Source: a bacterium | Lineage (GTDB): Bacteria; UBP6; UBA1177 | Length of the DNA: 64,000 nt | NCBI GenBank assembly: GCA_017405875.1 | Contig: JAFQZM010000020.1 | Span: 9,422 to 73,421 of the forward strand | Reading direction: 5' to 3' | Shown: one piece after another, positions 36,434 through 56,901 of the stretch | Layout: every line of letters begins with the position of its first letter | Position numbering within the stretch: position 1 is the first letter of the stretch | Made by a program: the position numbers and the translations under genes | The notes under the pieces: model-generated | Told to the model about the DNA's origin: nothing | Seen by the model: the letters and a program-made list of their open reading frames with translations, nothing else | Database searches by the model: none

Positions 36434-36928
36434 ATGACTGAATGTTACTGCGGAAGCGGAAAAAATTACGAAGAGTGCTGCGAACCGATAATCAAGGGCA
36501 AAAAAATTGCTGAAACGGCTGAAGAGCTGATGCGTGCAAGGTACTCGGCTTTTGCGGCTCACGAAATAGATTTCATCATGGATACCGTTGTTCCCGATCA
36601 GACCGGCAACATGTCACGCGAAGCGGTCGAAAGATGGTCAAAAAAGACCGACTGGAAAAAGCTCGAAATCACAGGAACCGAAGCGGGCGGCAAGGACGAC
36701 GAGACCGGCAGCGTCGATTTCAAGGCGTTCTCAATGCTTGACGGCATTATGCAGTGCCACCACGAGCACGCAATGTTCAAAAAAATCGACGGAAAATGGT
36801 TTTTCGAAGACGGAACGCAGATCATGCCTGAACAGGTAAGACGCGAAACTCCGAAAGTAGGCCGCAACGATCCGTGCCCCTGCGGAAGCGGCAAAAAATA
36901 TAAAAAATGCTGCGGCAAGAATGCTTAA
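36434..36928 (+). CDS. ychJ: YchJ-family protein (UPF0225) with SEC-C metal-binding motifs
   Basis: N-terminal [13 protein letters not shown] and C-terminal [18 protein letters not shown] motifs flank an NTF2-like core. RBS AGGAGG. Confidence 0.8.
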
Positions 36929-36972
36929 CAGACCGATATTACTTAATAAAAAATCCCAGCCTGAATTTTGCT

Positions 36973-36995
36973 CAAATATTGCGTTTTTTTGTTTT
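36973..36995 (+). promoter_or_regulatory. promoter motif AAATATT-GCG-TTTTTTTG-TTTT upstream of the S8 protease gene
   Basis: Same -10 / GC-rich / T-tract architecture, 38 nt upstream of the ATG at 37011. Confidence 0.4.
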
Positions 36996-37010
36996 AAGCC
37001 TGGAGGAATC

Positions 37011-39593
37011 ATGAAAAAATTATCCTTTTTTGCGTTGCTGACTCTTTTCAGCATCTCTCTTTTTGCCGAAAAAGTTTACAGAAGCGACGGAACTTTTTTT
37101 GAGATTGAGAGAAACGGTGACGTTTTTGCTTCAAAAATCGATGCAGCTTCGCTCAAAGCACCCGAAAACTACAAGATGAAGTGGCGCTCAAACGACGGAT
37201 TCATAGTTATTGACAAAAAAAATCAGGGAAATCTGCCGGTTTACCTTTCAGGAATGAATTTCGTAATCGCCGATTCAAAACTGTTCTACAAAGGAACAAA
37301 AAGTGTTGAATTTATTGAGAAAAAATACAACATCAAAGCAGTAGAACTTATGAGCGGTTACGATTATATCAAATTTGACGGTGCGACCGACAGCGTCAAA
37401 ATCGCTCAGCAGATTGTTGAAAACGGTGACGGATTCGCGTTTCCCAACCTTTACAGAAGATACGAACTTAAAGCCGTCAATCCCGTCAAGTTCCCGATCA
37501 AGGACAAATACTATACTGAAAACTATCAGTGGTCGCTTAAAAACACGGGAACCGGAATCGGTTACGAAGCAACGGAAGCCGGTTATCAAATCAAGGAAAT
37601 GGACATTCTGAAACACGCTGATGTCAAGTTTGAAGAGGCTATGGAGTTTATCCATGACCAGATCGAAGCCGGTAATCTTGAGAATTTCAACGAAAAAACG
37701 AAAGTTGCCATCATGGACAGCGGTGTCGATTTCGAGCATCCCGACCTCAAAAACAAACTTGAAGACGGCTTCAACATGGTTCATGAAGGCGAAACGGGAA
37801 ATCCCGGCACTTACACTCCCGATCCTGAAGACCCGATGTCGGATGCATCTTACTATTCGCACGGAACAAACTGCGCCGGCGTCGCTGCAGCGGAAGGCAA
37901 CGAGATCGGAACAGTCGGAATATGCCCGTGGTGCGGAATTTATCCCGTTACCTACATGGAAGGCGGAATCGGAACGATGGAATCCGGCGAAAAGCTGATG
38001 GAAGTTTACGAAAAATACACTGAAGATCCTGAAATCGTAGCAATCAACTGCTCTTTCGGTCCGGCGGCAGGTTACGGCAATATTCCGGCATCACAGGATG
38101 AAATCGAAAGCCACAAAAAATTCATGGAAGAAGGAAGAAACGGCAAGGGCGGCGTCATCGTCTACGCAAGCGGTAACGACGGCATCGATGCGGCCTACAC
38201 CGGAATCCTTTCATACGAATTCAAACTGAAACGCGGCGAAAAAAATGTTAAAAGCAGCGTTGTCACGGTCGGCGCAAGCTCTGCGTGGGATACGCGAGTC
38301 ACTTATTCTAACTACGGTGACATGATAGACATAGTTGCTCCGTCGCTTTCGATCAGACCTTTGATAGGCATTGCAACGAGTTTCCTCACAGGCTACGGAG
38401 ACCTTGACGATGACTATACGAACCAGTTCAGCGGAACTTCTTCATCGACTCCGGTCATCACAGGCGCGTTCGGCGTTATTTTCTCGGTAAATCCGGAACT
38501 TACGCTTGAAGAAGCAGTCTATATCCTTCACGAAAGTGCCGACAAAGTTAATCCGGAAACCGGTTTTTACGATAAAGACGGTCACAGCATAAAATTCGGC
38601 TACGGCAGACTCAATCTGCTCAAAGCTGTCAGACTCGCGATGGGTCTCGACATGTGCGAGGAAAGCGCCGACGAAGTAGCCGACAATCTTGACAACAACT
38701 GCGACGGCAGCGTTGACGAAGGTCTGAATAAAGACATTTCCAAAGTCTCGGCAAAGTGCAAAGAGGCAAAAGACTGCGAAACAGCCGACTTCAAAGGTGA
38801 CGATGTCGATTGTCTTACGGGAGAATTCGGCAAGTTCAAATTGAACGACGGTTACTGCATAATCAAAAACAGCAACTTCACATGTCCTGACGGAACGGCA
38901 CAAAACAGTGACTATGACCCTGAATGTCTTCTTGAGTGCAACAATGATCACCCGTGTCCTGAAGGTTTCGGGTGCACTGATGAAATGCTCGGCAAGTGCT
39001 TTCCTGAATGTTCGGAAGATACTGATTGTTCCCAAGGCGCTTACTGCGACAAAACAACAAAACTCTGTCACCTGAATCCGTCAGAACCGATGGGAGCGTG
39101 CGAAACCGGTGAAGACTGCAAATACAACGCAACGATGTGCATGGCCGAAGTACCCGGCGGAATATGCATCATCATGTGCAGTGATGACTACCGCTGCAAT
39201 GATGAGGAAGACAGCCCCAACAAATGTGCAGAAGTTGAGTTCGGGCCATACGGCACCTACAACATCTGTCTTCCGGGCTGCGAAGACGACAGTCAGTGCA
39301 GAAGTTTCGGTTTCGGTCCCGATTACGACATGAAGTGCCACAAACTCTACAACGGCAAAGAAAATATCTGTGGAATGCCGTGCAAAAGAGACGAAGACTG
39401 CCGCGATTATGAGGACGAAACAAAATGCGTAGAATCAAGGTGTGTTCCGCGCAACGAACCCGACGAACCGACGGACAGCGATACCGTTGCCGACGAAGAA
39501 CCTGCTGACGATTCAGATGATGACGACATGACTCTTGACGATGACCAGCCGGCAAAGAAAAAATCAAGCGGCTGTTCAGTGATCACCCTTTAA
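37011..39593 (+). CDS. secreted subtilisin-like serine protease (peptidase S8) with a long C-terminal Cys-rich repeat region and an acidic tail
   Basis: Signal peptide MKKLSFFALLTLFSISLFA. Catalytic triad blocks AIMDSGVD (Asp), HGTNCAGVAAA (His) and GTSSSTPVITG (Ser). The C-terminal ~300 aa hold more than 40 Cys in CxxxxDC-type modules, then a D/E-rich tail. RBS GGAGGAATC. Confidence 0.8.
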   Translation: MKKLSFFALLTLFSISLFAEKVYRSDGTFFEIERNGDVFASKIDAASLKAPENYKMKWRSNDGFIVIDKKNQGNLPVYLSGMNFVIADSKLFYKGTKSVEFIEKKYNIKAVELMSGYDYIKFDGATDSVKIAQQIVENGDGFAFPNLYRRYELKAVNPVKFPIKDKYYTENYQWSLKNTGTGIGYEATEAGYQIKEMDILKHADVKFEEAMEFIHDQIEAGNLENFNEKTKVAIMDSGVDFEHPDLKNKLEDGFNMVHEGETGNPGTYTPDPEDPMSDASYYSHGTNCAGVAAAEGNEIGTVGICPWCGIYPVTYMEGGIGTMESGEKLMEVYEKYTEDPEIVAINCSFGPAAGYGNIPASQDEIESHKKFMEEGRNGKGGVIVYASGNDGIDAAYTGILSYEFKLKRGEKNVKSSVVTVGASSAWDTRVTYSNYGDMIDIVAPSLSIRPLIGIATSFLTGYGDLDDDYTNQFSGTSSSTPVITGAFGVIFSVNPELTLEEAVYILHESADKVNPETGFYDKDGHSIKFGYGRLNLLKAVRLAMGLDMCEESADEVADNLDNNCDGSVDEGLNKDISKVSAKCKEAKDCETADFKGDDVDCLTGEFGKFKLNDGYCIIKNSNFTCPDGTAQNSDYDPECLLECNNDHPCPEGFGCTDEMLGKCFPECSEDTDCSQGAYCDKTTKLCHLNPSEPMGACETGEDCKYNATMCMAEVPGGICIIMCSDDYRCNDEEDSPNKCAEVEFGPYGTYNICLPGCEDDSQCRSFGFGPDYDMKCHKLYNGKENICGMPCKRDEDCRDYEDETKCVESRCVPRNEPDEPTDSDTVADEEPADDSDDDDMTLDDDQPAKKKSSGCSVITL

Positions 39594-39596
39594 AAT

Positions 39597-40739
39597 CTAA
39601 GAAAAAACCAGAAGATCAGGTTTGATTATCAGAATAAGACCGAGCGTGAGCATGAGAAGTCCGCTCACGAGTTTGAGCTTTTTCGCGTGTTTTTCTTCGA
39701 ATCTGTGCTTACCCATCGTGACAACGAACATAAGCACGATTATTGCAAGCGGAACAACGTAATAAACATTGTAAAGCGCCATGAAGAGATATTTTTTGAG
39801 GGTCGAGACATTCTGGATCGAAAGGACTCTCGTGTAGATTGCGGGAAGCCCGATCGTACAGCCGAGCTCAATCAGATTTACGAAAAACGCAAGTGCAATA
39901 GTTCCGAGAATCGACAAAAACATATTTTTGTTGTTGATGACACGCCTCATTTTCTCAAAAAGTTTCGGTTTGACTTTATCGGGAATCATCAGGCTCACAC
40001 CTTTTTTGAAGAAGAAAAACTCCTTCATGTTGATAAGTCCCATAATGATTGCAACAACACCGAGCGCGATCGTGACATAAGTCGTCATTCCCATAAACGT
40101 GAAAATATTGAGCCACGCCGTCATGAAAAGGAAATAAACAACGCCTGAAGAAATAACGAAAACCGAGCCTATCATTATAACTTTTTTCCTGTCTTTCGCA
40201 GCGACAAGAAGGGTGAGAAGGAACATCAGAACCCACATTGCACACGGGTTTACGCCGTCCAGAAGACCGATTATGAAGGTAAAACTCGGAAGTTTGACAA
40301 GCTGCGCGTCGATTTTCCCGAGAACCGGAACGTCAATCACGTTTTCCTTGCACTCCTGACACTGCTCACCGCACGATTCTCCGTCAGCCTTGTTCATTTC
40401 TATCATTTCACGGATAAGCGCGTCGTGGTGACCCGACTGGAAACCGACGATGAATTTTCCGTTGAAAATGAATGTCGGAACTCCGCCGCCCTGAATACCG
40501 AGCTTTTGCGTCATTTCTCTGAAAAGTTTCATATTTTCAGGAACTTGCAGAACTTCCAGCTTTTTAAAAGTTATATCGGGATATTCATGCTCAATAGCTG
40601 CGATGAACGGCTGCGCCTCGTGGCAGTGCGAACACTTATACGAATAAAAAAAGTAAAAAATATTGTCTTTCTGCACTTCTTCTGCAGAAACGGCAAATGA
40701 AACAAGCGCAAGAAGGAGCAGCAGGAAAAATTTTTTCAT
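39597..40739 (-). CDS. thioredoxin-like domain (CSHC) fused to a DsbD/CcdA-like transmembrane disulfide-transfer domain
   Basis: Signal peptide, then a Trx fold with CSHC. The C-terminal polytopic domain carries GVNPCAMWVL, like CcdA/DsbD-beta. The start was set at MKKFF. Confidence 0.65.
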   Translation of the reverse strand: MKKFFLLLLLALVSFAVSAEEVQKDNIFYFFYSYKCSHCHEAQPFIAAIEHEYPDITFKKLEVLQVPENMKLFREMTQKLGIQGGGVPTFIFNGKFIVGFQSGHHDALIREMIEMNKADGESCGEQCQECKENVIDVPVLGKIDAQLVKLPSFTFIIGLLDGVNPCAMWVLMFLLTLLVAAKDRKKVIMIGSVFVISSGVVYFLFMTAWLNIFTFMGMTTYVTIALGVVAIIMGLINMKEFFFFKKGVSLMIPDKVKPKLFEKMRRVINNKNMFLSILGTIALAFFVNLIELGCTIGLPAIYTRVLSIQNVSTLKKYLFMALYNVYYVVPLAIIVLMFVVTMGKHRFEEKHAKKLKLVSGLLMLTLGLILIIKPDLLVFS

Positions 40740-40756
40740 AAAAACCCCCAAAGTTA

Positions 40757-40781
40757 CGAACAAAAAAATCCGGCAATCATA
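40757..40781 (-). promoter_or_regulatory. promoter motif TATGAT-TGCCGGA-TTTTTTTG (minus sense) upstream of the DsbD-like gene
   Basis: Reverse complement reads GGCTATGATTGCCGGATTTTTTTGTTCG, 37 nt upstream of the ATG at 40739. Confidence 0.4.
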
Positions 40782-40817
40782 GCCAAAAACATTTTTTTAA
40801 CAAAAAAACAGCAGATT

Positions 40818-41195
40818 TTATTTCCGCGGCTCCTTTTTGACGGGACGCCCGATCATCGCACGGATTTTTTCTTCATAGACCCCTTTTTTAAATCCGACGA
40901 CATACTGGTCTCTGAAAACAAAAGTCGGGACACCGCCGCCCTTGATTCCCAGTTTTTCAACTTTTTTATTGAAAATCGCCATATTTTCAGGCGCTTTGGA
41001 AAGTTCAAGTTTCTTAAATTCAATATTCGGAAACTCTTTTTCCAATTCCTCTATAAAAGGCATTGCTTCGTGACAGTGCGGACACGACTCGGAATAGAAA
41101 AAATAAAATCTTTCGCTTTTCTGCGGAGTCTCTCCGGCAGAGAGCATCAACGAAATCATTGCCGAAACAAGTAAAATAAAAATTTTCTTCATAGC
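40818..41195 (-). CDS. secreted thioredoxin-like protein (CPHC), paralog of the N-terminal domain of the adjacent DsbD-like protein
   Basis: FYFFYSESCPHCHEAMPFIE...GGGVPTFVF aligns with FYFFYSYKCSHCHEAQPFIA...GGGVPTFIF of the neighbouring gene. Signal peptide present. The start was set at MKKIF (ATG 41195; AAGGTG upstream). Confidence 0.65.
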   Translation of the reverse strand, partial: AMKKIFILLVSAMISLMLSAGETPQKSERFYFFYSESCPHCHEAMPFIEELEKEFPNIEFKKLELSKAPENMAIFNKKVEKLGIKGGGVPTFVFRDQYVVGFKKGVYEEKIRAMIGRPVKKEPRK

Positions 41196-41214
41196 ACTTT
41201 TCACCTTCACAAAT

Positions 41215-41237
41215 TACAAAAAAACAGGGCATTATAC
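41215..41237 (-). promoter_or_regulatory. promoter TTGTTT, 16-nt spacer, TATAAT-GCCCTG-TTTTTTTG (minus sense) for the Trx-like gene
   Basis: Reverse complement reads CGCCGTATAATGCCCTGTTTTTTTGTAATTTG, 36 nt upstream of the ATG at 41195. Confidence 0.5.
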
Positions 41238-41268
41238 GGCGTTTTTTATTTAAAACAACCAAATTATA

Positions 41269-41310
41269 TTGACATTTCGGAGTTTTTGAATATGCTGTCG
41301 CGGTTTTTTG
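41269..41310 (+). promoter_or_regulatory. sigma70-type promoter TTGACA, 16-nt spacer, TATGCT, then GTCGCGG-TTTTTTG
   Basis: A canonical -35/-10 pair with the recurring GC-rich / T-tract downstream element, about 45 nt upstream of the ATG at 41338. Confidence 0.5.
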
Positions 41311-41337
41311 GTTCTAACCATTTTGGAGGGTATAAAA

Positions 41338-41580
41338 ATGGCTAACAAAGATTTCGACAAAATAACAAAACTTCCTGTTGACGAACGTTGCGAAGGTTGC
41401 GACAAAGTTGAGACGACAGAAGCAGGCAGCTTCTGCAAAAAATATGCAGATCCTTCATTTCACTGGGAAAATGACCAGGTTTGTTCTTTTGCTTCCCATG
41501 TAAAAAGAGAAGTTAAAGTTGTTACTAAGAAGCTCAATCCTCTTAAGGCTTCGAAAAGAGCTTCCGGTAAAAAGAAATAA
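41338..41580 (+). CDS. small Lys-rich four-Cys protein (hypothetical, ~80 aa)
   Basis: Starts MANKDFDK, has CEGC...C...C spacing and a K-rich tail. RBS GGAGGG. It is the first gene of a two-gene plus-strand unit. Confidence 0.4.
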   Translation: MANKDFDKITKLPVDERCEGCDKVETTEAGSFCKKYADPSFHWENDQVCSFASHVKREVKVVTKKLNPLKASKRASGKKK

Positions 41581-41591
41581 GTTTCTGAATT

Positions 41592-43181
41592 TTGGAACAC
41601 TTCTATTTTATCCGGTTTCCCGAACAGATATTCAATCTTCGGCAGGATATTTCCGAGGGAATTCCTGTAATTCCGTTTTTTGACGATTTCGAAACTTTCA
41701 ATCGGATAATTGCATCATTAAAACGCAAAAAATCGGTAACAGCCGTATTTTACGAAAAAAGTTCTTATCCGTTCGACCTTTTTTTACAGAACTGCGCCAT
41801 TTTTGATTATGTTTTTCTGGCTGATTCTTCAATTGTAAAACCTTTGCGCGAAGCGGGATTTACCGGAAAAATCGCACTTTTTTCAAATTTCCGGATGATT
41901 TCTTTTCCCGATTTTTTTAAAGATTTCGGTGTATTGCCTGTTGTCAGCGGAAAAGCCGATTTCAAATTCGCACAGGACAGCGGTCTGGAGCCGGTTTATT
42001 TCGTTTCAGACAAAGCGTGCATCGCAGAATTCGGGCTCTGCCTTTCGAGAAAAAGCGTTCCGCAGCACTGCTTCAACTGCGACAACCGGTGCCGCGAGAA
42101 AAGTACGACGAAGCCCGGACTTGAATTTCCGGTCTCGATGAAGCCCGATCTCAACGCGCCGAACGATGCACCTTTTTTGCTTTTTTCGGAAAGAACTTTC
42201 TTTCCTGAAGTAAAAGCAGTCTGCGCCAGAGACAAAATCTTAGAAAAATCATGGAATTACCGTTATCCGATCGGAGTAGAGATTCTTAAGCCGGGAAAAT
42301 CAAAGGACAGCAGAACATATTCTTTCCTTCTCGACAAAACCTCTTCGGCGATGTTCGACAAAGACCTTCTGGGATTTTACGGCTATTCGGGCGCTTTCTA
42401 TAAAGGCAAATGGATTGACGCCAAGAATGTGAGAAAAGTTGATGACACCAAACTTTGCGCTGAAATTTCAGGAAGTTACAAATCCGTTCTGCTTATTTGC
42501 AGATATACGGAAGAAGAAAAGGACTTTCTCAAAAAAGCACGTCACCATATCTACACTCTGCCTTACCAGGAAGTGATTCCGGCTCCGGTAAAAGAGGAAA
42601 ATGTTCCGGAAAAGAAAAAAACTTTCAGAAAATATTCGGAAAGGGCGAAAATCACTCTGATTTCCGACGACATCAAAAAATTCGCAGTTTTCAAGAGCAA
42701 AAACGTCGAACGGTATGTTTTTATCTACAACCGCAATATTCCGAAAGGTTTTTCCGACTACATTTACATCGCGGGAAATCTTGTGGAAAAGGATTTTGAG
42801 GATATCGCCTCGGTTGAAAAATTAAAGGGGATCGTCGTTTCGGACATAATCATGAAAGAGGTCCTTCAAAAAATTTTCCCTAAACTTGAAATTCTACTTC
42901 ATCCTTTTGCATACAGCGATTCCGAAGAGGCTCCGTCATATCTGTCGGCTTCAACTTCGATATTCGTTTCGCGCTTCAGATCGGAAAACAGAAACAACTA
43001 CGCATGGCCTGACATAAATATTTTTCTTAAAAACCACATCGGTTACTCCGAGTTCATCTCGCACAAAAAAATGATCCGCAACGGCGGAAAAAGGGAACTT
43101 TGGGTAAACATCGCCGACATTTCGGACGACGCTGTCAGATTTTTAAAATCACAGGCAATTCTGATGGTTAGCGGAATGTGA
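41592..43181 (+). CDS. hypothetical 529-aa protein
   Basis: A long ORF with normal codon usage and no motif I can assign. It contains HCFNCDNRC. Confidence 0.45.
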   Translation: MEHFYFIRFPEQIFNLRQDISEGIPVIPFFDDFETFNRIIASLKRKKSVTAVFYEKSSYPFDLFLQNCAIFDYVFLADSSIVKPLREAGFTGKIALFSNFRMISFPDFFKDFGVLPVVSGKADFKFAQDSGLEPVYFVSDKACIAEFGLCLSRKSVPQHCFNCDNRCREKSTTKPGLEFPVSMKPDLNAPNDAPFLLFSERTFFPEVKAVCARDKILEKSWNYRYPIGVEILKPGKSKDSRTYSFLLDKTSSAMFDKDLLGFYGYSGAFYKGKWIDAKNVRKVDDTKLCAEISGSYKSVLLICRYTEEEKDFLKKARHHIYTLPYQEVIPAPVKEENVPEKKKTFRKYSERAKITLISDDIKKFAVFKSKNVERYVFIYNRNIPKGFSDYIYIAGNLVEKDFEDIASVEKLKGIVVSDIIMKEVLQKIFPKLEILLHPFAYSDSEEAPSYLSASTSIFVSRFRSENRNNYAWPDINIFLKNHIGYSEFISHKKMIRNGGKRELWVNIADISDDAVRFLKSQAILMVSGM

Positions 43182-43186
43182 GGCAG

Positions 43187-43465
43187 CTATTCGCCGCACT
43201 TTTTCTGATCTTTATTGAAATCGGGATTTTCTTCGGTTCTTCTGATATTGTTTTTAAGTTTAAGCTTTTCGATGTTCAATTTCTGTATTTTCAGCGATTT
43301 CATCGGCACTTTGATATTTTTTCTCAGTTCTTTAGATTCAATTTTTTCTTCGACGGCAGGTTTTTCAGGCTGGACAGAACTTATAGAACCGGTTTGACCG
43401 GCAACAACAGCGAATATTGCGATTGCCGCCGCGATAATTATTACAGCAATAACAACTTTTTTCAT
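43187..43465 (-). CDS. small membrane-anchored protein (hypothetical)
   Basis: An N-terminal hydrophobic helix MKKVVIAVIIIAAAIAIFAVVAG, then a K/E-rich segment. Confidence 0.4.
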   Translation of the reverse strand: MKKVVIAVIIIAAAIAIFAVVAGQTGSISSVQPEKPAVEEKIESKELRKNIKVPMKSLKIQKLNIEKLKLKNNIRRTEENPDFNKDQKKCGE

Positions 43466-43471
43466 TTGACC

Positions 43472-44409
43472 TCAGTGAACTATTCTCGTTCCTGTTTTGC
43501 CTTCCATAGCCTCGGTGAGTTTGTCTTCGGAAGTGATTATAACGACTTTTTTGCGGTCGTTTTTGACGAAATCTATCGCCGCTTTAATCTTGGGTCCCAT
43601 GCTTCCTGCCGGGAATTCGCCCTGAGCCAGATATTTTTCGGCTTCTGCGGAAGTCATTGAGTCAAGCCAAGTCGGTTTGTCTGACTTGAAGTTTACTGCG
43701 ACTTTCTCAACACCCGTGAGAATTACGACCATATCTGCATCGATCGTCTGTGCGATCATTACGCTGGCTAAATCTTTGTCGATAACGGCGTCGATCCCCT
43801 GATACCCCGATTTGTCCTTGCTTCTGTAAACCGGAATTCCGCCGCCGCCGCCTGTGATGACGGTGAAACCCGCATCAATAAGCGTGTTCATGGCTTCCGG
43901 ATTGAGAACTCTGAGAGGCATAGGCGAAGGAACGACTCTGCGGTAACCGCGACCGCTGTCTTCCACCATTTTCCAGCCGTTTTTCATCTTCATCAGAGCT
44001 TTCTGCTGATTATAGAAAGGACCGACCGGCTTTGTCGGCTTTTTGAATGCCGGATCAAGCGGATTTACTTCGATCTGAGTAACCAGAGTCGCAACTTTTG
44101 CACGCGATCCTGCTTTGCTGAGGCAGTTCATAAGCCCCTGCTCGATCATGTATCCCATGCTGCCCTGCGTGTCTGCGACGCATACGACGAGCGGATCGGG
44201 ATAAACTTCGGTCTCAGCCATTTCGTTGCGGATGAGCCTAGCACCAGCCTGAGGGCCGTTTCCGTGAGTGATTACAACCTGATGTCCTTCCTTTATAAGC
44301 TGGACGATGCCGTCCATTGAAGCGCGGATATTTCTTTCCTGATCTTCGACAGTTCCTTTGTCTCCCGGTTTTATCAGGGCATTGCCGCCGAGCGCGATCA
44401 CTATTTTCA
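43472..44409 (-). CDS. carbamate kinase-like protein
   Basis: MKIVIALGGNAL...VVITHGNGPQ matches the amino-acid-kinase fold of carbamate kinase. The start was set at MKIV with GGAG upstream. Confidence 0.75.
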
Positions 44410-44420
44410 TAAAAACTCCA

Positions 44421-44456
44421 TCAAAAAAAGAAAGAGGGGACAACCGCCCCCTCTTT
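44421..44456 (-). terminator. intrinsic terminator hairpin (9-bp GC-rich stem AAAGAGGGG/CCCCTCTTT) followed by a T-tract on the minus strand
   Basis: A perfect inverted repeat at 44431-44439 and 44448-44456, with CTTTTTTTG downstream in minus sense. It lies between the GTPase-like gene and the carbamate kinase gene. Confidence 0.6.
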
Positions 44457-44477
44457 AAAAAAATCAGTTACAAAAAA

Positions 44478-45834
44478 CTATTTGCAGCAGCCTTTGCATT
44501 TGAAAAGTTTTTCAACAGCTTCTTTAAGCAGTTCTGCACCGTTTCCTCTCGGAGCAAGTTCGTAGCCAACGCGTACGATCGGTTTGTTGACTTTTACAAC
44601 TCTGCCGAGGTCGATCGGGGTACCGCTGAGAACGATATCAGCGTCTATTGCGTTGATCGTCTTCTCAAGGTCTCTGGTCTGCTCTTCGCCGTATCCCATA
44701 GCCGGAAGGATGCCTTCGCCGATGTTCGGATATTTTTTGTAGGTGAAAGCGATTTTGCCGACAGCTGCCGGTCTCGGGTCAACCATCTCTTTAACGCCGA
44801 ATCTCTTAGCTGCTACGCTTGCAGCACCGATCTTCATGCCGCCGTGGGTAAGTGTCGGGCCGTCTTCAACAACGAGGACTCTCTTTCCTTTGATGTCGCC
44901 GTCAACGGTAAGTTCTGAGTCAGCTTCGATAATAACTGCGTTCGGAGCGAGTCTCTTGCAGTTAGCTTTAACTGTTTCGATATCTTCCGGTTTCGCGCTG
45001 TCCATCTTGTTGATGACGATAACGTCAGCCATAAGAACATTGACTTCGCCCGGATAGTAAAGGCATTCGTGACCCGGACGGAGAGGATCTACGACAACGA
45101 TCTTGAGGTCTGATTCATAGAACGGGAAATCGTTGTTTCCGCCGTCCCAGAGGATGACATCGGGTTCGCCGTCGATATCTTTTTCAGCCTGACGAAGGAT
45201 AGCTTCGTAGTCAACGCCTGCATAAATTACGTTGCCTGCAGCAATGTGCGGCTCGTACTCTTCCATTTCTTCGATGGTGCAGTTGTTAGCTTTGAGGTCT
45301 TCGATCTTAGCGAAGCGCTGAACAGCCTGTTTGTTGAGGTCAGGATCGTAAGGCATCGGGTGACGTACTGCAACGACCTTTTTGCCCATTTTCTTGAAAA
45401 TATCATAGATGAATCTTGTGGTCTGGCTTTTGCCGCAGCCGGTTCTTACAGCGCAGATCGAGATGATCGGTTTGCATGATTTGATTTTCGTCTTGTCATA
45501 GCCCATAAGAACGAAGTCAGCGCCGAGCGAGTTAACGAGAGCGCCCTTGCTCATAACTATCGGATAGTAAATGTCGCTGTAAGCAAATACGCAGATTTCA
45601 ACGCCGAGTTCTTTAACGAGTCTCGGAAGTTCGGTTTCGTCATAAATCGGAATACCGTTCGGGTAAAGGTCTTCACCTGCGAGTTCTTTCGGATACTTTC
45701 TTCCGTCGATGTCAGGAATCTGAGTCGCGGTGAAAGCAACTACTTCGTACTCCTTGTTGTGTCTGAAATAGGTGTTGAAGTTGTGGAAATCTCTACCGGC
45801 AGCACCCATGATGAGAACTTTTTTTCTGGTCATT
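44478..45834 (-). CDS. predicted P-loop GTPase, cyclic 2,3-diphosphoglycerate synthetase-like (COG2403 family)
   Basis: A mid-protein Walker A AVRTGCGKS and an N-terminal Rossmann-like KVLIMGAAGRDFH. Family assignment is from memory only. The start was set at MTRKK with GGAGGA upstream. Confidence 0.55.
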
Positions 45835-45861
45835 TGTTCCTCCAAATGTTAAGTTATTAAA

Positions 45862-45901
45862 ACGGCCGGACAAGGTCAACGGCGGCCGGACACAGTCAAC
45901 G
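45862..45901. repeat. tandem 20-bp direct repeat CGGCCGGACA(A/C)(G/A)GTCAACGG, two copies, in a promoter region
   Basis: It lies 30-70 bp upstream of the GTPase-like gene start. Each unit contains a TTGAC (-35-like) on the minus strand. Confidence 0.6.
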
Positions 45902-45978
45902 GCGCAGGAAAATATCATACTAAAATCCTATGTCAAGCGTAAAAGAAAAAATTTAGAGGTGATTCTGCTTATAAGAAT

Positions 45979-46671
45979 TTAGTTTTCTTTCGAAAGGAAG
46001 TTCCAGATTACGGCTGCAAGTGCCGCGCCGATGAGCGGAGCAACTATGAATACCCAGAGAGCCGCGACCGGAGCCGTGTTTCCGCTGATTGCAGCAACGA
46101 GAGCCGGTCCGAAACTTCTTGCCGGGTTGACAGACGTTCCGGTGAGACCGATGCCGAGAATGTGGACGAGAACGAGCGTGAAGCCGATAACTACGCCCGC
46201 AAACGAGCCGTGGTTGCCTTTCTTCGATGTTACACCGAGGATAGTGAGAACGAAGAAGAACGTAAGGACGATTTCAACGATGAGGCCAGCTGCAACACTT
46301 CCGTTGACACCTGCAAGACCGTTCGTGCCGAAACCGCCGGTTTTGTCAGCAACGCCGCCGAGATTGAATATTGCAGCAAGAAGTCCTGCACCTGCAAGTG
46401 CGCCCAGACACTGTGAAATTACGTAGCCGATGAAGTCTTTGACTGTCATTCCGCCTGTCATAAGCACGCCGAGCGAAACAGCCGGATTGATGTGGCAGCC
46501 GGAGATGTTGCCTACGCAGTAAGCCATTCCGACTATTGTAAGACCGAATGCAAGCGCGGTAAGAAGGTATCCGCAGCCCGAAGCAGCGTCGCAGCCGACA
46601 AGCATTGCCGTGCCGCAGCCAAGTGTTACAAGTGCACAAGTGCCGATAAATTCAGCGATGTAAGATTTCAT
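45979..46671 (-). CDS. aqpZ: MIP-family channel (aquaporin Z-like)
   Basis: Two NPA boxes (HINPAVSLG and SVNPARSFGP) and six TM helices in 230 aa. Confidence 0.8.
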   Translation of the reverse strand: MKSYIAEFIGTCALVTLGCGTAMLVGCDAASGCGYLLTALAFGLTIVGMAYCVGNISGCHINPAVSLGVLMTGGMTVKDFIGYVISQCLGALAGAGLLAAIFNLGGVADKTGGFGTNGLAGVNGSVAAGLIVEIVLTFFFVLTILGVTSKKGNHGSFAGVVIGFTLVLVHILGIGLTGTSVNPARSFGPALVAAISGNTAPVAALWVFIVAPLIGAALAAVIWNFLSKEN

Positions 46672-46692
46672 AACAAATCCTCCTAAATAAAA

Positions 46693-48090
46693 TTATTCAT
46701 TGCTTGAACAAGAGTCTGAGAAAAGAGCCAGCTCTTTGTCGCATTTTTCCATATCTTCTTCAGGTTCATCGCATTCCTGTGAATATCCGCTGTAGAAAAT
46801 GTATATGTCATCGCCTTCAGGAGTGCAGCGGTAAATGTCGAAATCTCCGTTTGCGCAATACATGTAATAACTGCACTCTGCAGGAATTGCTTCTTCCTCT
46901 TCCTCTTCTTCTTCGGAAGTCGTATCACCGCAGTATTCGTAATATTCCTCGTAGCATGACTGCATATTTTCTTCGTTGCACTCGAATTTCCTGTCTCCTA
47001 CCTGATAGTAGAAGTTTCCGTCACCTTTTGTCGAAGCGCAGGCTTTGGATGTTTCGCCGGTTTTTTCGCATACACCCTCTTCTTCGCAGTAGAATCCGTC
47101 TTCGTATTCGCCGTCAAGTGCTTCGCAGTACTGTTCCATTTTGAAAAAACAGTCTTCGTGATTTTCCGATTCGCATTTGAATTCTTTATCACCGACTTTT
47201 ATCGAGTAGATGTTGGAATATGAGCCGTTGAAATCACCGTAAAGGCAGTAAACGAGCATCTCGCCTGTTTTCTGGCAGTAGATCGATTCGTTTTCTTTGT
47301 CATCGTAGTCGGCATCTTCTTTGTCACCATAGATAGTATCCCACTCTTTTATGGTCTTGCAGGTAACTTCGCCGGTTTTGCCGCCGCCGTTGTTGTTGTT
47401 GGAATTTTCTTCTGTTACTTCGTCAACAACAATGAAAGTGTAGTCGGAGAAGTGACCGGTCGTCATCATGATAGGATCGCCTGCAGCAGCGTTCATAATA
47501 GGATCGCCCGCAGCATTCGTCATGATAGGATCACCTGCCGAAGCAAGCATGATGGGATCACCGGCAGCAGCATTCATGATAGGATCGCCCGCAGCGGTCG
47601 TCACATTTCCGTTGCTGATCATAATGGGATCGCCTGCAGCAGTCGTCATGATGGGATCGCCTGCTTCGTCATATCCGCCGAACAGTGCATAAGCTCCTTT
47701 TTCGCTGTAGCTCCATGTTCCGTCGCCTTTCATAACGGCAGCCGCAACAGTTTTGCCTTTTACAGCCTTTCCGGCATTGATCGTGATGACAACGGGTTTT
47801 TTGAATTTTGTACCTGAAGGACCGAATTCAACGATATTGGAAGCAAGAGCTTTTTTGTTTTTGAATCCGTCTGTTGTGTAAAGTGTTACCGAAATTTCGG
47901 TGTCTTTGTCGAGTGCTCCGGCAGGAATTTTTATCTTTGCTTCGCCGCCGGCAACTTCGATTTCTCCGCCTTCCGAAGCGGTAATTGTCTGTGATTTTTC
48001 TTCAACAACTTTCTTGCTTTCGCCGGATCCGCCGCAACTTACTGCAAAAAAGAGCGCTGCACAAATCGTCAAAACCAAAATTTTTTTCAT
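46693..48090 (-). CDS. lipoprotein with seven GDPIM-containing 9-aa tandem repeats and a C-terminal acidic Cys-rich region
   Basis: Signal peptide plus lipobox FFAVSCGGSG. The central repeats are (A)AGDPIMxxA. The C-terminal part has an E8 run and repeated Y..VGD+.F.C.EN...C modules. Confidence 0.6.
   Translation of the reverse strand: MKKILVLTICAALFFAVSCGGSGESKKVVEEKSQTITASEGGEIEVAGGEAKIKIPAGALDKDTEISVTLYTTDGFKNKKALASNIVEFGPSGTKFKKPVVITINAGKAVKGKTVAAAVMKGDGTWSYSEKGAYALFGGYDEAGDPIMTTAAGDPIMISNGNVTTAAGDPIMNAAAGDPIMLASAGDPIMTNAAGDPIMNAAAGDPIMMTTGHFSDYTFIVVDEVTEENSNNNNGGGKTGEVTCKTIKEWDTIYGDKEDADYDDKENESIYCQKTGEMLVYCLYGDFNGSYSNIYSIKVGDKEFKCESENHEDCFFKMEQYCEALDGEYEDGFYCEEEGVCEKTGETSKACASTKGDGNFYYQVGDRKFECNEENMQSCYEEYYEYCGDTTSEEEEEEEEAIPAECSYYMYCANGDFDIYRCTPEGDDIYIFYSGYSQECDEPEEDMEKCDKELALFSDSCSSNE
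47467..47673. repeat. in-frame 27-bp tandem coding repeats (7 units, one with an 18-nt insertion)
   Basis: The units CATGATAGGATCGCCTGCAGCAGCGTT and variants encode the GDPIM repeats of the 46693..48090 gene. Confidence 0.8.
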
Positions 48091-48112
48091 AACAACCTCC
48101 TGAAATTATTTG

Positions 48113-48514
48113 TTATTTGGAATTTTTCTTTCTATTCATCCTTTCTTCAGCCTTTTCAAACGCTTCCTGAATTTTCAGATATCCGGCAACGCCTTCGAGA
48201 AGTTCTACCGGCTCGTCTTTAATGAATATCCCGATCGTTGGAACAGCCTTTATCTTGCACGGAACGATGATTTTGCCGTCAGTGTCCTGCGCCACATTGA
48301 AGGCACCCACCCTTGCACGCCCTTTGAAATCGGTCGCAAACTTGGTCAGAGTCGAATAAACCATATTGCACGGCTGCGATTTTTCCACATAAAAATCAAC
48401 GATTACCGGAACCGTGGAATTTTTCAGTGAAGGATAGAAAGTTTCGTTCGAAAGTTCGACCGGATAGATTTTTTCATGCGGTAAAATACTTTTTAAAACA
48501 TCAAAAAAACTCAT
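48113..48514 (-). CDS. thioredoxin-like protein with an atypical SQPC active-site motif
   Basis: VIVDFYVEKSQPCNMV...AVPTIGIF aligns with the thioredoxin VLVDFWAEWCGPCKM...GIPTLLLF pattern. The N-terminal Cys is replaced by Ser. Confidence 0.5.
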   Translation of the reverse strand: MSFFDVLKSILPHEKIYPVELSNETFYPSLKNSTVPVIVDFYVEKSQPCNMVYSTLTKFATDFKGRARVGAFNVAQDTDGKIIVPCKIKAVPTIGIFIKDEPVELLEGVAGYLKIQEAFEKAEERMNRKKNSK

Positions 48515-49113
48515 TTTTCCTCCGTATTTCCGGAAATCATCGTGACTTTTCCGCCGCTCAGAATGTATCTGCTGCCGTCAGAGCAGTCGTGAGCCTCGCC
48601 GTTTCCGTCAAATTCAAGTTTATAGCCGTTTTTCGAGACCCAGCCGCGTATTTTAGCCGGAACTCCGTAGACAAGTGCAAAATCGGGGACATCCCTGCTG
48701 ACGACGCTGCCCGCGCCGATTAACGAATATTTTCCGATAGTTACACCGCAGACAATTGTTGCATTGGCGCCCACCGAACAACCTTTTTTCATCAAAGTTT
48801 TTTTGAATTCGTGCTTCCTTTCAATGAAAGCGCGCGGATTGATGACGTTCGTGAAAACCATTGACGGCCCCAGAAAAACGTCGTCTTCAACTTCGACACC
48901 GTCGTAAACTGAAATGTTGTTCTGAATTTTAACGCCGTTGCCGATATTCACGTTCGCGCCGATGACGCAGTTTTGCCCGACAACGCACCTTTCGCCGATC
49001 CTCGTGTTCCCGAGAATGTGCGAAAAACACCAGATTTTTGTGTTTTTTCCGATAGTTACGCCGTCATCGACGATAGCGGTTTCATGAACAAAATAATCTT
49101 TTTCAGCTGTCAT
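48511..49113 (-). CDS. hexapeptide-repeat sugar N-acetyltransferase, WbpD/WlbB-like
   Basis: Strong resemblance to WbpD-type UDP-GlcNAc(3N)A N-acetyltransferases (IVDDGVTIGKNTKIWCFSHI...VYDGVEVEDDVFLGPSMVFTNVINPRAFIERK...GANATIVCGVTIGKYSLIGAGSVV). Confidence 0.7.
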   Translation of the reverse strand: MTAEKDYFVHETAIVDDGVTIGKNTKIWCFSHILGNTRIGERCVVGQNCVIGANVNIGNGVKIQNNISVYDGVEVEDDVFLGPSMVFTNVINPRAFIERKHEFKKTLMKKGCSVGANATIVCGVTIGKYSLIGAGSVVSRDVPDFALVYGVPAKIRGWVSKNGYKLEFDGNGEAHDCSDGSRYILSGGKVTMISGNTEEK

Positions 49114-49140
49114 TTTTTCGTATCACCCAGTACGGCACCA

Positions 49141-49160
49141 CAAAAAACGCGGCATTTTAG
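49141..49160 (-). promoter_or_regulatory. promoter motif TAAAAT-GCCGCG-TTTTTTG (minus sense) upstream of the WbpD-like gene
   Basis: Reverse complement reads CTAAAATGCCGCGTTTTTTGTGG, 41 nt upstream of the ATG at 49113. Confidence 0.4.
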
Positions 49161-49247
49161 CAGGATTTTGAAAAATTGGAATAATTTTTAAATTCAAGCT
49201 GTTGAAAAGGGGCGATACGGTCAAAAACCGACGTTTGCCGTGATTAT

Positions 49248-49293
49248 TTGCTTTTTTTATATAAAAACCTTATAATCCCGCGTTTTTTTGTTT
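49248..49293 (+). promoter_or_regulatory. promoter TTGCTT, 17-nt spacer, TATAAT-CCCGCG-TTTTTTTG-TTT
   Basis: A full -35/-10 pair plus the recurring downstream element, 37 nt upstream of the TTG start at 49330. Confidence 0.5.
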
Positions 49294-49329
49294 ATTGTTT
49301 TTTTGATAACCTAGTTAAAGGAGGATTTC

Positions 49330-50904
49330 TTGAAAAAATTATTGATTGCAGCTTCGGTTTTGGCTCTCTGCATCAGCATGATCGTTTCATGCGGCGAAAA
49401 AAAAGAACCCGAAGCAAAAGAGAAAGTTAAACTTTCTTTCCACGTTATGAGTAAGTGTCCTTACGGTGTTCAGGTTATGAACGCAATCAAACCGACACTC
49501 GACAAACTCGGAAACGCAGTTGATTTCGAACTCAACTACATCGGTTACGAAAAGGACGGCGGCTGGATGCCTATGCACGGAGCAACCGAGCGTCAGGGCG
49601 ACAAAATCTTCCTCTGCGCTAAAAAACACATGCCGAAAGACTACATGAATCTTATCGTCTGCATGAACAAAGAATCGAGAAAGATTCCCGAAAATTTTGA
49701 AAGCTGCGCTAAAGAACTCAACCTCGACATCGCTAAAGTCAATGCGTGCAAAGACGGCGACGAAGGTGAGAACATTCTTCTTGAAAGCTACAAATTTTCG
49801 AAATCGAAAGGCGCAAACGGTTCGCCCACGATTTTCCTTGCTGATCAGCCCTACAGAGGCGGAAGAACTTCCAACGATTTCCTGAGAGCGATCTGCAACG
49901 AATACAAAACCGCGAAACCGGAAGTCTGCAGCTCGATTCCTGAACCTGCAAAAGTAAAAGTTACCGTCATTTCCGACAAAAGATGCAAAGACTGCAGACC
50001 AGAAGCTTTGATCGGCCAGCTTAAAAACATGTTCCCCGGACTTATTCCGGAAACCATCGACTACTCCGATGAAAAAGCTCAGGAACAGTACAAAAAGTTT
50101 GCAGAAGCAGGCTTCAAAACCCTTCCTATCATAGCTTTTGAAGAATCAGTCGAAAAAGAGGAAGAATACCAGAAAATCGCACGTTGGGCTGTAAAAGCAG
50201 GAGGAGCAATCCTTCTTCGAGTCGGCGCAAAATTCGACCCGACCAAAGAGATCTGCGACAACGGAATGGATGATACCGGCAACGGCAAAGTTGACTGTGC
50301 CGATGACGACTGCAAAGAAGAAATGCTCTGCAGAAAAGAGATCCCGGGAAGAATCGACCTTTTCGTTATGAGCCAGTGCCCCTACGGTGTTATGGCGCTC
50401 AACGCAATGAAAGAAGTTTTCGAAGCTTTCAAAGACGACAAACTTGACTTCCACGTAAACTACATCGCAAACGAGACCGAACCCGGCAAATTCAATGCTC
50501 TTCACGGCCAGGGCGAAGTTGACGAGAACATCCGTGAACTCTGCGCGATCAAGCACTATCCGAAAGATTACATGAACTACATCTGGTGCCGCAACGAGAA
50601 CATCAGAGGAACCGACTGGCAGAAATGCGCAACCGGCAAAATCAAAGCTGATGTCATCGAAAAATGCTTCAACGGCGGCGAAGGTGTAAAACTTCACAGC
50701 GAAAACATCAAAATCGGAAACAAAATGGGAATCGGCGGCAGCCCGACATGGATTTTCAACAACAAATTCCAGGGCGGCGGCGTTGCTGCAAACGACATCC
50801 AGAGACAGATCTGCGCTCACAACAAAGATCTTAAAGGCTGTGCAGCTGACAAAGCTATCAAAGCCGGCGACAAACCTGCTCCTCAGGGCGGCTGCGGCGA
50901 ATAA
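49330..50904 (+). CDS. lipoprotein with two tandem DsbA-like thioredoxin-fold domains carrying monothiol CPYG motifs
   Basis: TTG start with RBS AAGGAGGA 5 nt upstream. Signal peptide plus lipobox IVSCGE. There is an internal duplication (HVMSKCPYGVQVMNAIKP...GANGSPTIFLADQPYRGG and FVMSQCPYGVMALNAMKE...GIGGSPTWIFNNKFQGGG). The GxxG[ST]PT block resembles the DsbA cis-Pro loop. A Cys-rich linker DCADDDCKEEMLC joins the domains. Confidence 0.6.
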   Translation: MKKLLIAASVLALCISMIVSCGEKKEPEAKEKVKLSFHVMSKCPYGVQVMNAIKPTLDKLGNAVDFELNYIGYEKDGGWMPMHGATERQGDKIFLCAKKHMPKDYMNLIVCMNKESRKIPENFESCAKELNLDIAKVNACKDGDEGENILLESYKFSKSKGANGSPTIFLADQPYRGGRTSNDFLRAICNEYKTAKPEVCSSIPEPAKVKVTVISDKRCKDCRPEALIGQLKNMFPGLIPETIDYSDEKAQEQYKKFAEAGFKTLPIIAFEESVEKEEEYQKIARWAVKAGGAILLRVGAKFDPTKEICDNGMDDTGNGKVDCADDDCKEEMLCRKEIPGRIDLFVMSQCPYGVMALNAMKEVFEAFKDDKLDFHVNYIANETEPGKFNALHGQGEVDENIRELCAIKHYPKDYMNYIWCRNENIRGTDWQKCATGKIKADVIEKCFNGGEGVKLHSENIKIGNKMGIGGSPTWIFNNKFQGGGVAANDIQRQICAHNKDLKGCAADKAIKAGDKPAPQGGCGE

Positions 50905-53797: not shown

Positions 53798-53954
53798 TAA
53801 AACTCCAAGAACATTGAAAAAACCTGCAATATTACGATTGAAAGGCAAAATGTCAATTTTTGGGCAATGGCGCATATTTTACTTTCAATATGATTAATTA
53901 GTGATAATATATGGAGCTTGTTTGAGTTTTTTAGCATTTTGCGGGAGAGTTGAC

Positions 53955-56061: not shown

Positions 56062-56901
56062 TTAAAAGATTTTTTCAGGATTTTCGCAGAAACAGTTTGC
56101 AAGACATTCAGTGATGAAGTAGCGTGATTCACCGCAACTGAATACCGAAGCTTCATCTTCAGGATAACAGCCGCATTCGTTCGGAATTTCATCTGAATCG
56201 GCGTCTTCGTCGGGAAGTTCCGTATCGTTATCGGTCTCATCAGAGTCATCATCTTCACCGACCGACGGGTCAGCATCGTCACCCTCGCCTTCTGTCAAAT
56301 CTCTGGTGATTCCGGCTTCGTCGCAAAGCCCTGGTTCTGAAACTGAACAGATTTTGCCGCCTGAATTGATGGCGTAGCAGTTTACGAAACACGGGTTGAA
56401 GACCAATATTTTGCCGTCGCAGCATACCGGGAAATAGTCCGGAGTACTGCCGCATCCGCATTCAACATTCGTAAATCCTTCAGGGAACGGATCACTTTCA
56501 GGGAATATGTAGACAGGCGCGTCTTCATCAGGAAAATCGTCAGGATTTGCCGGATCATTCATATCCGGTTCAGAATCGGTATCAATATCTGTATCGGTAT
56601 CGGTTGGATCAATACTATCCGCATAATCTTCATCCGGATAAGGAGCGTTCTGTTCATCATTTTCTTCATACTTATCCTGCCCGCCCTCATCGTAATAGTC
56701 ACTGTCGGCATTGTCTTCGTTCCAATCGTCGTAGTTTCCGGCACTTGCCGTGTCCGCATTATCGCCTTCGTAAATCTCGTCCGGAAGCCCTTCTGTATTG
56801 TCTTCACCGTCGGAGGATTTATCGCCCAGATTTACGAACTGACTGCAAGAAACAACGAACAAAACAACTGAAACGACTAAGAAAAATCTACTTTTCATCA
56901 A
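56062..56901 (-). CDS. acidic lipoprotein with two Kazal-like protease-inhibitor modules
   Basis: Signal peptide plus lipobox LFVVSCSQ and long D/E-rich spacers. Two Cys modules, ECGCGSTPDYFPVCCDGKILVFNPCFVNCYAINSGGKIC and ECGCYPEDEASVFSCGESRYFITECLANCFC, match the Kazal PVCG.DGKTY.N.C..C spacing. Confidence 0.55.
   Translation of the reverse strand: MMKSRFFLVVSVVLFVVSCSQFVNLGDKSSDGEDNTEGLPDEIYEGDNADTASAGNYDDWNEDNADSDYYDEGGQDKYEENDEQNAPYPDEDYADSIDPTDTDTDIDTDSEPDMNDPANPDDFPDEDAPVYIFPESDPFPEGFTNVECGCGSTPDYFPVCCDGKILVFNPCFVNCYAINSGGKICSVSEPGLCDEAGITRDLTEGEGDDADPSVGEDDDSDETDNDTELPDEDADSDEIPNECGCYPEDEASVFSCGESRYFITECLANCFCENPEKIF

Follow-up and report, generated by a model that had tools for sequence, protein, structure and literature searches.

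A GILT-related bacterial lipoprotein family with single-cysteine active sites and a C-terminal cysteine or putative selenocysteine, encoded beside two other thioredoxin-fold units in a rumen UBP6 genome

We analysed a 64,000-nucleotide stretch of bacterial DNA (positions 9,422 to 73,421 of contig JAFQZM010000020.1, assembly GCA_017405875.1; hereafter the window), in which four genes, called A to D below, encode thioredoxin-fold proteins within 11 kb. The main finding concerns gene D. Its product is a lipoprotein of a large bacterial family, with two GILT-like domains that each keep a single active-site cysteine, a central thioredoxin-like domain with a CxxC motif and a conserved C-terminal cysteine. 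The best reading of the region is that it holds three separate units, B-A, C and D, which are adjacent in this lineage only. With a confidence slightly above even, we favour a joint interpretation of these units in which D would be a redox enzyme whose active site is split, while A together with B would form a DsbD-like membrane thiol relay. The lineage of the window is one of rumen UBP6 metagenome-assembled genomes (MAGs), its nearest records being 'bacterium UBP6_UBA1177', 'UBP6_UBA1196' and many rumen MAGs (D 89-98% identical). The loci numbered L001 to L037 are other D- or A-family loci that were compared with the window.

All four open reading frames (ORFs) lie where a preliminary description of the window had placed them. 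Their thioredoxin fold was borne out by Pfam, by profile matches to PDB structures and by AlphaFold2 (AF2) and Foldseek. The CPYG motifs of D and the SQPC motif of C map to the canonical active-site loop. The heading under which the four genes had been grouped, extracytoplasmic proteins with monothiol sites, applies in part. A signal peptide or a lipobox is present in A, B and D but not in C. Conversely, C and both GILT-like domains of D are monothiol, whereas A (CSHC) and B (CPHC) have ordinary CxxC sites.

Gene D (49330..50904, + strand) starts at a TTG codon preceded by a conserved AAAGGAGGA ribosome-binding site, and the lipobox cysteine of its product is C21. The architecture was delineated from the ORF, Pfam, the family alignment and the AF2 model. 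GILT-like domain 1 (residues 30-205; 49417..49944), also supported by profile and Foldseek matches, carries the motif C43-P-Y-G (codons 49456-49467). It is followed by a central thioredoxin/glutaredoxin-like domain (residues 206-300; 49945..50229) with an invariant C219-K-D-C222 (codons 49984-49995) and the cis-proline P266. Next comes an acidic double-disulfide repeat with four invariant cysteines (residues 304-334; 50239..50331), which NCBIfam NF033662 matches with an E value of 5e-6, below its cutoff. GILT-like domain 2 (residues 337-510; 50338..50859) carries C350-P-Y-G (codons 50377-50388), and the protein ends in ...GGCGE, the codon of the tail cysteine, C522, being 50893..50895. The preliminary description of D as a lipoprotein with two tandem DsbA-like CPYG domains was right as to the lipoprotein, the tandem and the position of CPYG in the active site, but the domains belong to the GILT family (PF03227) and not to DsbA proper. 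It had missed the central CxxC domain, the acidic four-cysteine repeat and the C-terminal GGCG tail.

In the AF2 model of D (predicted local distance difference test, pLDDT, 92.4), C43 and C350 stand directly before helices and after strands 33-39 and 341-346, that is, at the beta1-alpha1 junction. The cis-proline loops of both GILT-like domains read G-S-P-T (P166 and P472), and the two domains are 36% identical to each other. The tail is rich in glycine and has a low pLDDT; as judged from the model, it is probably flexible. Conservation within the family is strong. Over 65 aligned homologues, 22 cysteines are common to the family and invariant or nearly so, and the central motif D-x-R-C219-x-x-C222 is conserved. 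The attacking cysteine, the proline that follows it and the cis-proline loop are invariant in both GILT-like domains across the family. The positions of G46 and G353, where a resolving cysteine would stand, are each occupied by glycine in 63 of the 65 sequences. In the central domain, the profile matches the CxxC unit of Pyrococcus PDO and glutaredoxin-like chains (1a8l and 1j08), with the CxxC motifs aligned.

The two outer domains of D belong to the GILT family and have the GILT-type helical insertion. PF03227 matches D with an E value of 8e-25 and 87.7 bits (cutoff 22.4) in two stretches that cover both domains, and is present in all D homologues among the matches listed. The family profile matches mouse GILT (6nwx) with an E value of 2e-8, and the invariant cysteines 96, 111, 126, 140, 189 and 200 of D fall on GILT cysteines, which leaves C43 and C350 unpaired inside their domains. 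The best Foldseek match of the D model is also 6NWX (E 3e-9, TM-score 0.72-0.75 on the target, about 19% identity), ahead of Staphylococcus aureus DsbA. Like members of the DsbA family (the S. aureus DsbA lipoprotein 3BCI, BdbD, ScsC), D lies outside the cytoplasm and has a thioredoxin fold into which helices are inserted, and Foldseek matches to DsbA-family structures reach an E value of 3e-6 with TM-scores of 0.74-0.76 on the target. However, PF01323 (DSBA) matches only residues 115-178 (27.8 bits for a cutoff of 25.6), no CxxC is found in the GILT-like domains and the conserved cysteine pattern is that of GILT.

GILT is usually regarded as a eukaryotic (animal) lysosomal reductase. As in GILT, the attacking cysteine of D is placed by the model at the start of helix alpha1. 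Unlike GILT, D comes from a bacterium, is anchored by a lipid and has the domain twice, together with an inserted thioredoxin-like domain of CxxC type and an acidic cysteine repeat. The CxxC active site of the characterised mammalian GILT enzymes, which are dithiol reductases, is not present in D, both domains of which have CPYG. In most family members the resolving cysteine is replaced by glycine or alanine, and a conserved C-terminal tail with a cysteine, or possibly a selenocysteine (Sec), is added. The first two cysteines of the GILT signature CQHGxxEC are likewise not present in the D alignment. A metal site made of Met40, Cys43 and His83 was considered and set aside; the HGxxE element also occurs in mouse GILT at the aligned position. 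Searches of the open-access literature on bacterial GILT, PF03227 and GILT structures returned nothing on bacteria and no name for the D family. The NCBIfam model NF041057, 'Rcas_1661 family thioredoxin-like (seleno)lipoprotein', resembles D in describing lipoproteins of thioredoxin/DsbA-like fold with Sec or Cys forms. However, D and its single-domain relatives match it over the C-terminal half only, with 17-31 bits against a cutoff of 190 bits, and it is at best a distant relative.

Domain 1 of D was searched against 1.84 billion representatives. This gave 1875 clusters at E <=1e-3, of which 173 were found at <=1e-30, so that the family comprises at least 1875 clusters at 50% identity. Most members are tandem proteins; some are single-domain proteins of 200-330 residues. 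Active-site motifs were counted in the best 150 representatives. CP[YF]G is the most frequent (161 occurrences), followed by CP[FY]A (55), CP[YFH]C (14 of about 250 motifs) and CP[YF]S (5). The dithiol CPxC form thus exists but is rare, which argues that the position is a genuine redox site that repeatedly lost its resolving cysteine. A cysteine is found among the last six residues in 106 of the 150 proteins, and a G-x-C ending is seen as well in single-domain relatives, in which the central domain is missing. The tail cysteine goes with the monothiol state: it is present in 101 of 122 proteins with monothiol sites throughout and in 2 of 9 with any CPxC (131 parsable representatives, Fisher p 2.8e-4), a comparison that ignores phylogeny and includes nine dithiol cases, one of the two tail-bearing ones being mis-parsed.

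At three loci outside the window, an in-frame TGA occupies the position of the tail cysteine. The predicted proteins of L035, L036 and L037 all end in '...GGG' just before the expected cysteine. The DNA of L035 then reads GGG-TGA-AAG-TGA (2134-2142), the TGA being followed by a lysine codon, and that of L036 reads GGG-TGA-GGG-GGC-TAG (3640-3651), with two glycine codons after the TGA. In L037, GGG-TGA is followed by GGACGKGGACGNK and TAG (3103-3150), and the extension repeats the G-A-C-G tail motif of the D family. In all three, but not in the window gene, the UGA is aligned with a cysteine of the homologues and the frame resumes after it, a pattern typical of Sec/Cys pairs. The alignment suggests that this TGA encodes selenocysteine, and the three proteins are probably unannotated selenoproteins that were shortened by 2-14 residues. 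The same Sec/Cys pair logic was applied by Haft and Gwadz (bioRxiv 10.1101/2022.07.06.499078). In the DsbA-like selenoproteins of a 2022 review, Sec lies inside a UxxC motif and not in the tail (PMC9312934). Finally, P0005, a close D relative with 71% identity, carries an N-terminal fusion to a TlpA-like domain with a WCVPC motif, a hint that the electrons of D come from a reductive pathway.

We propose that D, a member of a large bacterial family akin to eukaryotic GILT, is a lipid-anchored oxidoreductase of three modules. The single CP[YF]G cysteine of each GILT-like module would attack a substrate disulfide; either the Cys/Sec of the flexible tail or the CxxC of the central domain, or the two together, would then resolve the mixed disulfide so formed. 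The tail and the CxxC would then be recycled by an exported reductant, and D would act as a reductase or an isomerase. In this organism A and B are the obvious candidate for that reductant, although nothing here links them to D. The preliminary description had proposed that the single-cysteine domains act as isomerase or mixed-disulfide partners, or as chaperones without a redox role. For D, a redox-active role of these sites is supported by the CPxC variants, by the tail cysteine when the resolving cysteine is absent, by the probable Sec and by the TlpA-like fusion. The limits of the tail statistic given above weigh against our scheme, and so do two results on the TGA loci. The stability of the hairpins found 3-18 nt after the UGA in L035-L037 is ordinary (z -0.6 to -1.5), and an Rfam scan for selenocysteine insertion sequence (SECIS) elements at the three loci gave no match.

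The tail of D invites comparison with mammalian thioredoxin reductase, which has a flavoprotein fold and a flexible C-terminal Gly-Cys-Sec-Gly arm that shuttles between a buried site and the partner. By analogy, the D tail may be likened to this arm in being a short, flexible, glycine-flanked C-terminal segment with a redox residue, Cys or Sec. However, thioredoxin reductase is an unrelated flavoprotein with a Cys-Sec pair in its tail, whereas D has a single Cys or Sec, for which we infer the role of a resolving arm.

Genes B and A form a two-gene operon on the - strand. B (40818..41195), identified from its ORF, a Pfam scan and pairwise comparison, encodes an exported single-domain thioredoxin with a CPHC site (codons 41076-41087). 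It adjoins A, 78 bp upstream on the same strand. The signal peptide of B and its 54% identity over 114 residues to the thioredoxin domain of A confirm the earlier view of B as a secreted paralogue of that domain, for which about 55% had been claimed. A (39597..40739), from its ORF and AF2 model, has a signal peptide, a periplasmic thioredoxin domain and a membrane domain of six transmembrane helices (TM1 to TM6), with one cysteine in TM1 and one in TM4. The family alignment places its CSHC active site at residues 36-39 (40623..40634, - strand) and, together with the AF2 model (pLDDT 79.7, six transmembrane helices), its membrane domain at residues 148-380 (39600..40298, - strand). The thioredoxin domain gives a weak match to Pfam Thioredoxin. 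More than 2210 homologues of A were found. Their active site is CPHC in most members, with C36, H38 and C39 nearly invariant, and in other lineages two or three CPHC thioredoxin domains are fused. Two membrane motifs, N-P-C166-A-[MI]-W of TM1 and C294-T-x-G-[LF]-P of TM4, are conserved without exception in 59 aligned homologues. The loops after TM1, TM3 and TM5, read from the sequence, are rich in Lys and Arg, which places the N-terminal thioredoxin domain outside and TM1 and TM4 in opposite orientations, as in DsbD-beta.

The linker between the thioredoxin domain and TM1 of A (residues 119-133; 40342-40386) contains a C-x3-C-x2-C motif (CGEQCQEC) and has a pLDDT below 50. Its C-x-x-C part is conserved solely in relatives with an identity of about 70% or more.

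DsbD-beta, CcdA and ScsB are transmembrane thiol-disulfide transporters (Cho et al. 2012, PMC3322552). A resembles them in the fusion of a periplasmic redox domain to a polytopic membrane domain, and in having one proline-preceded, essential-looking cysteine in TM1 and one in the oppositely oriented TM4. It differs from them in its thioredoxin domain or domains, which are N-terminal, small, glutaredoxin-like and of CPHC type, without an Ig-like alpha domain, and in its TM4 motif, which is G-C-T-x-G-L-P instead of P-C. The DsbD/CcdA-like label given to A in the preliminary description is thus plausible from topology and cysteine placement, but was not established by sequence or fold searches.

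Several of these searches count against the label. The membrane domain of A belongs to no Pfam family, and the window protein matches neither DsbD nor DsbD_2 (PF02683, PF13386). Within the A family, 7 of the 59 members match DsbD_2, with a best E value of 0.11 (Pfam, E <=10). PDB fold searches with A returned thioredoxins only, with no match covering the membrane part. In an hhalign comparison of the A family with E. coli DsbD, the gamma thioredoxin domain was the sole match. Against DsbD-beta, represented by a 10-sequence alignment built from plasmid records, the A family aligned collinearly over 198 columns with both cysteines on the catalytic cysteines of DsbD, which speaks for the label, but at a P value of 0.036 and an hhalign probability of only 1.4%. 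No internal 3+3 repeat was detectable in the membrane domain. A tblastn search of plasmids with the membrane part found one homologue, in Pseudanabaena, annotated as 'glutaredoxin family protein'. It is plausible that A works like DsbD or CcdA, its membership of that family being unproven. Most likely, the B-A pair would carry reducing equivalents from a cytoplasmic thioredoxin over the membrane to the exported thioredoxin domains, and this direction of electron flow is one that we infer.

The opposite direction has to be weighed. A and B could be oxidising, in the manner of DsbA-DsbB or of VKOR-thioredoxin proteins, the CPHC domains putting disulfides into a cysteine-rich secretome and being re-oxidised through the membrane cysteine pair of A. 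CPHC, the consensus of the A-family thioredoxin domains, is also the motif of E. coli DsbA, and thioredoxin fusions to VKOR are oxidases. The motif shared with an oxidase could mean an oxidising role for A and B and speaks against the reductive reading. The organism exports many cysteine-rich proteins, the window shows no other oxidase, and the membrane domain of A is not demonstrably that of DsbD or CcdA. However, DsbB and VKOR have loop cysteine pairs and a CxxC beside the quinone site, whereas the membrane domain of A has just two conserved cysteines, placed within TM1 and within TM4 like those of DsbD-beta and CcdA. Moreover, no quinone-binding signature came up for A, though no search was aimed at one. 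We regard an oxidising A-B pair as rather unlikely.

Doubt can also be raised about the D sites themselves. Their CPxG domains might be non-catalytic, serving as ligand-binding or chaperone modules on a GILT fold, as do mosGILT or the thioredoxin-like domain of the plant vacuolar sorting receptors (VSR). The resolving cysteine is indeed not present in most members. Among the matches of the D profile is, besides, the thioredoxin-like domain of VSR1 (9b1r, E 1e-4), which is not catalytic, and D gives a weak match to PF25011. Anopheles mosGILT, a CxxS protein, keeps only the first active-site cysteine and has no detectable reductase activity (PMC6060088), which tells against a redox role for the similar D sites. 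D resembles mosGILT in its GILT fold and in retaining the first active-site cysteine alone. However, mosGILT has serine at the fourth position and no reported tail cysteine, whereas the D family has glycine or alanine there, with a CxxC domain next to it and a tail Cys/Sec that co-varies. The invariance of the attacking cysteine, the following proline and the cis-proline loop in both domains argues against non-catalytic modules, as do the persistence of CPxC forms in some members, the tail cysteine that tracks the monothiol state, the probable Sec at the tail of three members and the fusion of one relative to a TlpA-like domain. We therefore hold such a role of the D domains to be unlikely.

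It is still less probable that the Cys/Sec tail of D serves to bind a metal (or metalloid) or to direct sorting or lipidation, instead of being a redox arm. The tail is glycine-rich and predicted to be disordered, and the C-terminal CC or CU tails of other exported (lipo)proteins have been read as metal-binding (bioRxiv 10.1101/2022.07.06.499078), a precedent that weighs against the proposed arm. However, the tail cysteine is rarer in CPxC members, as expected of a redox partnership and not of a sorting signal. It is also found on single-domain forms whose sole other free thiol is the CPxG cysteine.

Gene C (48113..48514, - strand), identified from its ORF, Pfam and PDB profile matches, encodes a thioredoxin paralogue with the motif SQPC (codons 48368-48379). 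It matches Pfam Thioredoxin (PF00085) with an E value of 2e-10 and 41 bits (cutoff 23.5). The WCGPC dithiol site is not present in C; in alignments with thioredoxins of known structure, its K-S-Q-P-C falls on WC[GH]PC and its AVPT on the cis-proline loop. All 13 clade members of C that were aligned have S46, P48 and C49 (S-x-P-C), whereas the second cysteine of C is variable. C has neither a signal peptide nor a hydrophobic N-terminus, and is therefore cytoplasmic. The 23 homologues found, 64-93% identical, all belong to this rumen UBP6 clade. C is confined to this clade and thus is no general partner of the D family. C overlaps by 4 bp the upstream gene of a hexapeptide-repeat acyltransferase (48511..49113, - strand; ORF, Pfam), which is co-transcribed with C and not a redox protein. 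We propose that C is a lineage-specific cytoplasmic thioredoxin paralogue that lost its attacking cysteine (SxPC); it is probably not a conventional oxidoreductase.

A CnoX/YbbN-type identity of C was also considered. E. coli CnoX/YbbN has a thioredoxin domain with serine for the first cysteine, SQHC. C resembles it in this replacement, with SQPC, but has no TPR domain and is nearer to classical TrxA. No YbbN chain was found among the best 60 of 106 PDB matches to C, and the identity was rejected.

The preliminary description had seen in the four clustered genes a dedicated periplasmic relay. The genes that lie between them or follow them encode a carbamate kinase, a P-loop protein, an aquaporin, a ZU5 lipoprotein and a sugar-type acyltransferase, with TrkH and TrkA after D. 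The gene order is kept in most close relatives only (D 89-98% identical); none of the other genes is nearby in L009 (D 93% identical) or in L013 (D 66% identical). At L013, L014, L015, L031, L032 and L033, no thioredoxin-fold neighbour was found within 8-10 kb of D. One 2.95 Mb genome carries both families, with the A homologue at 2.79 Mb, 1.6 Mb away from the D homologue at 1.17 Mb, and A homologues stand in unrelated gene contexts. In L034 (D 69% identical), a C homologue is directly divergent from D and every other neighbour is different. The linked pairs are B-A, and C-D within a subclade, only. No neighbour of A and D recurs beyond synteny remnants of trkAH and carbamate kinase near D. 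K+ uptake genes of the trkA/trkH type stand at or near D in L014, L031 and the window (50988-53875), in genomes otherwise rearranged, and a carbamate-kinase-like gene adjoins D in L014 and L015; these neighbours look like residual synteny and not a functional link.

It seems highly doubtful that A to D together make up a single dedicated periplasmic relay that forms or isomerises disulfides in the neighbouring cysteine-rich exported proteins, for although four thioredoxin-fold genes do lie in 11 kb beside such proteins, with an order kept in close relatives, a C-D divergent pair persisting in L034 and A and D families co-occurring in at least two genomes, C is cytoplasmic, the intervening genes are unrelated housekeeping genes, synteny is lost at the six distant D loci and in the 2.95 Mb genome, A homologues have unrelated contexts, and the cysteine-rich ZU5 lipoprotein is variable among relatives. 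The redox gene cluster as first described is mostly a coincidence of neighbourhood, minor in itself.

The cysteine-rich exported proteins reported for the window were found: an S8 protease with 39 cysteines and lipoproteins at 46693-48090 (20 cysteines), 782-1840 (13) and 56062-56901 (15). No evidence ties these genes specifically to A-D, of which they had been thought the clients, and the 'Kazal-like' label given to one lipoprotein has no Pfam support. The S8 subtilase (36921..39593, + strand; ORF, Pfam, cysteine count) has 39 cysteines and a cysteine-rich C-terminal tail, is convergent with A and is a possible, unproven client. Its C-terminus (39540-39593) has an acidic stretch followed by ...KKKSSGCSVITL, a short Gly-Cys tail that loosely recalls those of the D family. 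The ZU5-domain lipoprotein (46693..48090, - strand; Pfam, cysteine count) lies directly downstream of C and is absent in L010. At 47466-47595, its gene contains about 4.8 copies of a 27-nt tandem repeat, giving units of about nine residues that contain AAGDPIM, between the ZU5 domain and the cysteine-rich C-terminal half.

Elsewhere in the window, a DUF6811 protein with four cysteines (41308-41580, + strand; E 2e-22) is encoded divergently from the B-A operon and is followed by a 529-residue protein without a family match (41592-43181, + strand); both genes are kept in the close relatives L001 and L006. Just past trkA, a 710-residue protein (53901-56033, + strand) has a C-terminal adenylate/guanylate cyclase domain (E 2e-29), and its position is kept in close relatives. 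A long run of ORFs on the - strand (about 7100-35700) looks, from N-terminal sequences only, like a locus for surface-polysaccharide biosynthesis. The GC content falls to 0.34-0.37 at 10-24 kb, from about 0.45 elsewhere in the window; part of the polysaccharide-like locus may therefore have been acquired horizontally.

Overall, the D family shares with GILT its fold and cysteine pattern, has a different active-site design and is large in bacteria. As a tentative proposal, well short of even confidence, D may represent a widespread and unrecognised class of envelope oxidoreductases that combine a monothiol CP[YF]G/A loop with a swinging C-terminal Gly-Gly-Cys/Sec-Gly arm. It would then be a new selenoprotein family with Sec in the tail, and maybe the prokaryotic relative behind GILT and the plant VSR thioredoxin-like domain. 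A second unannotated family that deserves a model is that of A, with more than 2210 homologues and a membrane part outside any Pfam family. If the tail Cys/Sec of D does resolve the mixed disulfide, the bacterial envelope would have a further way of exchanging thiols and disulfides, not described before, and the Sec forms would be a new type of selenoprotein, overlooked because the genes are cut short at a TGA three residues before the C-terminus. The family would then also give a starting point for studying how cysteine-rich exported proteins are folded or reduced in uncultured anaerobes, among them rumen UBP6 and Myxococcota-like MAGs.

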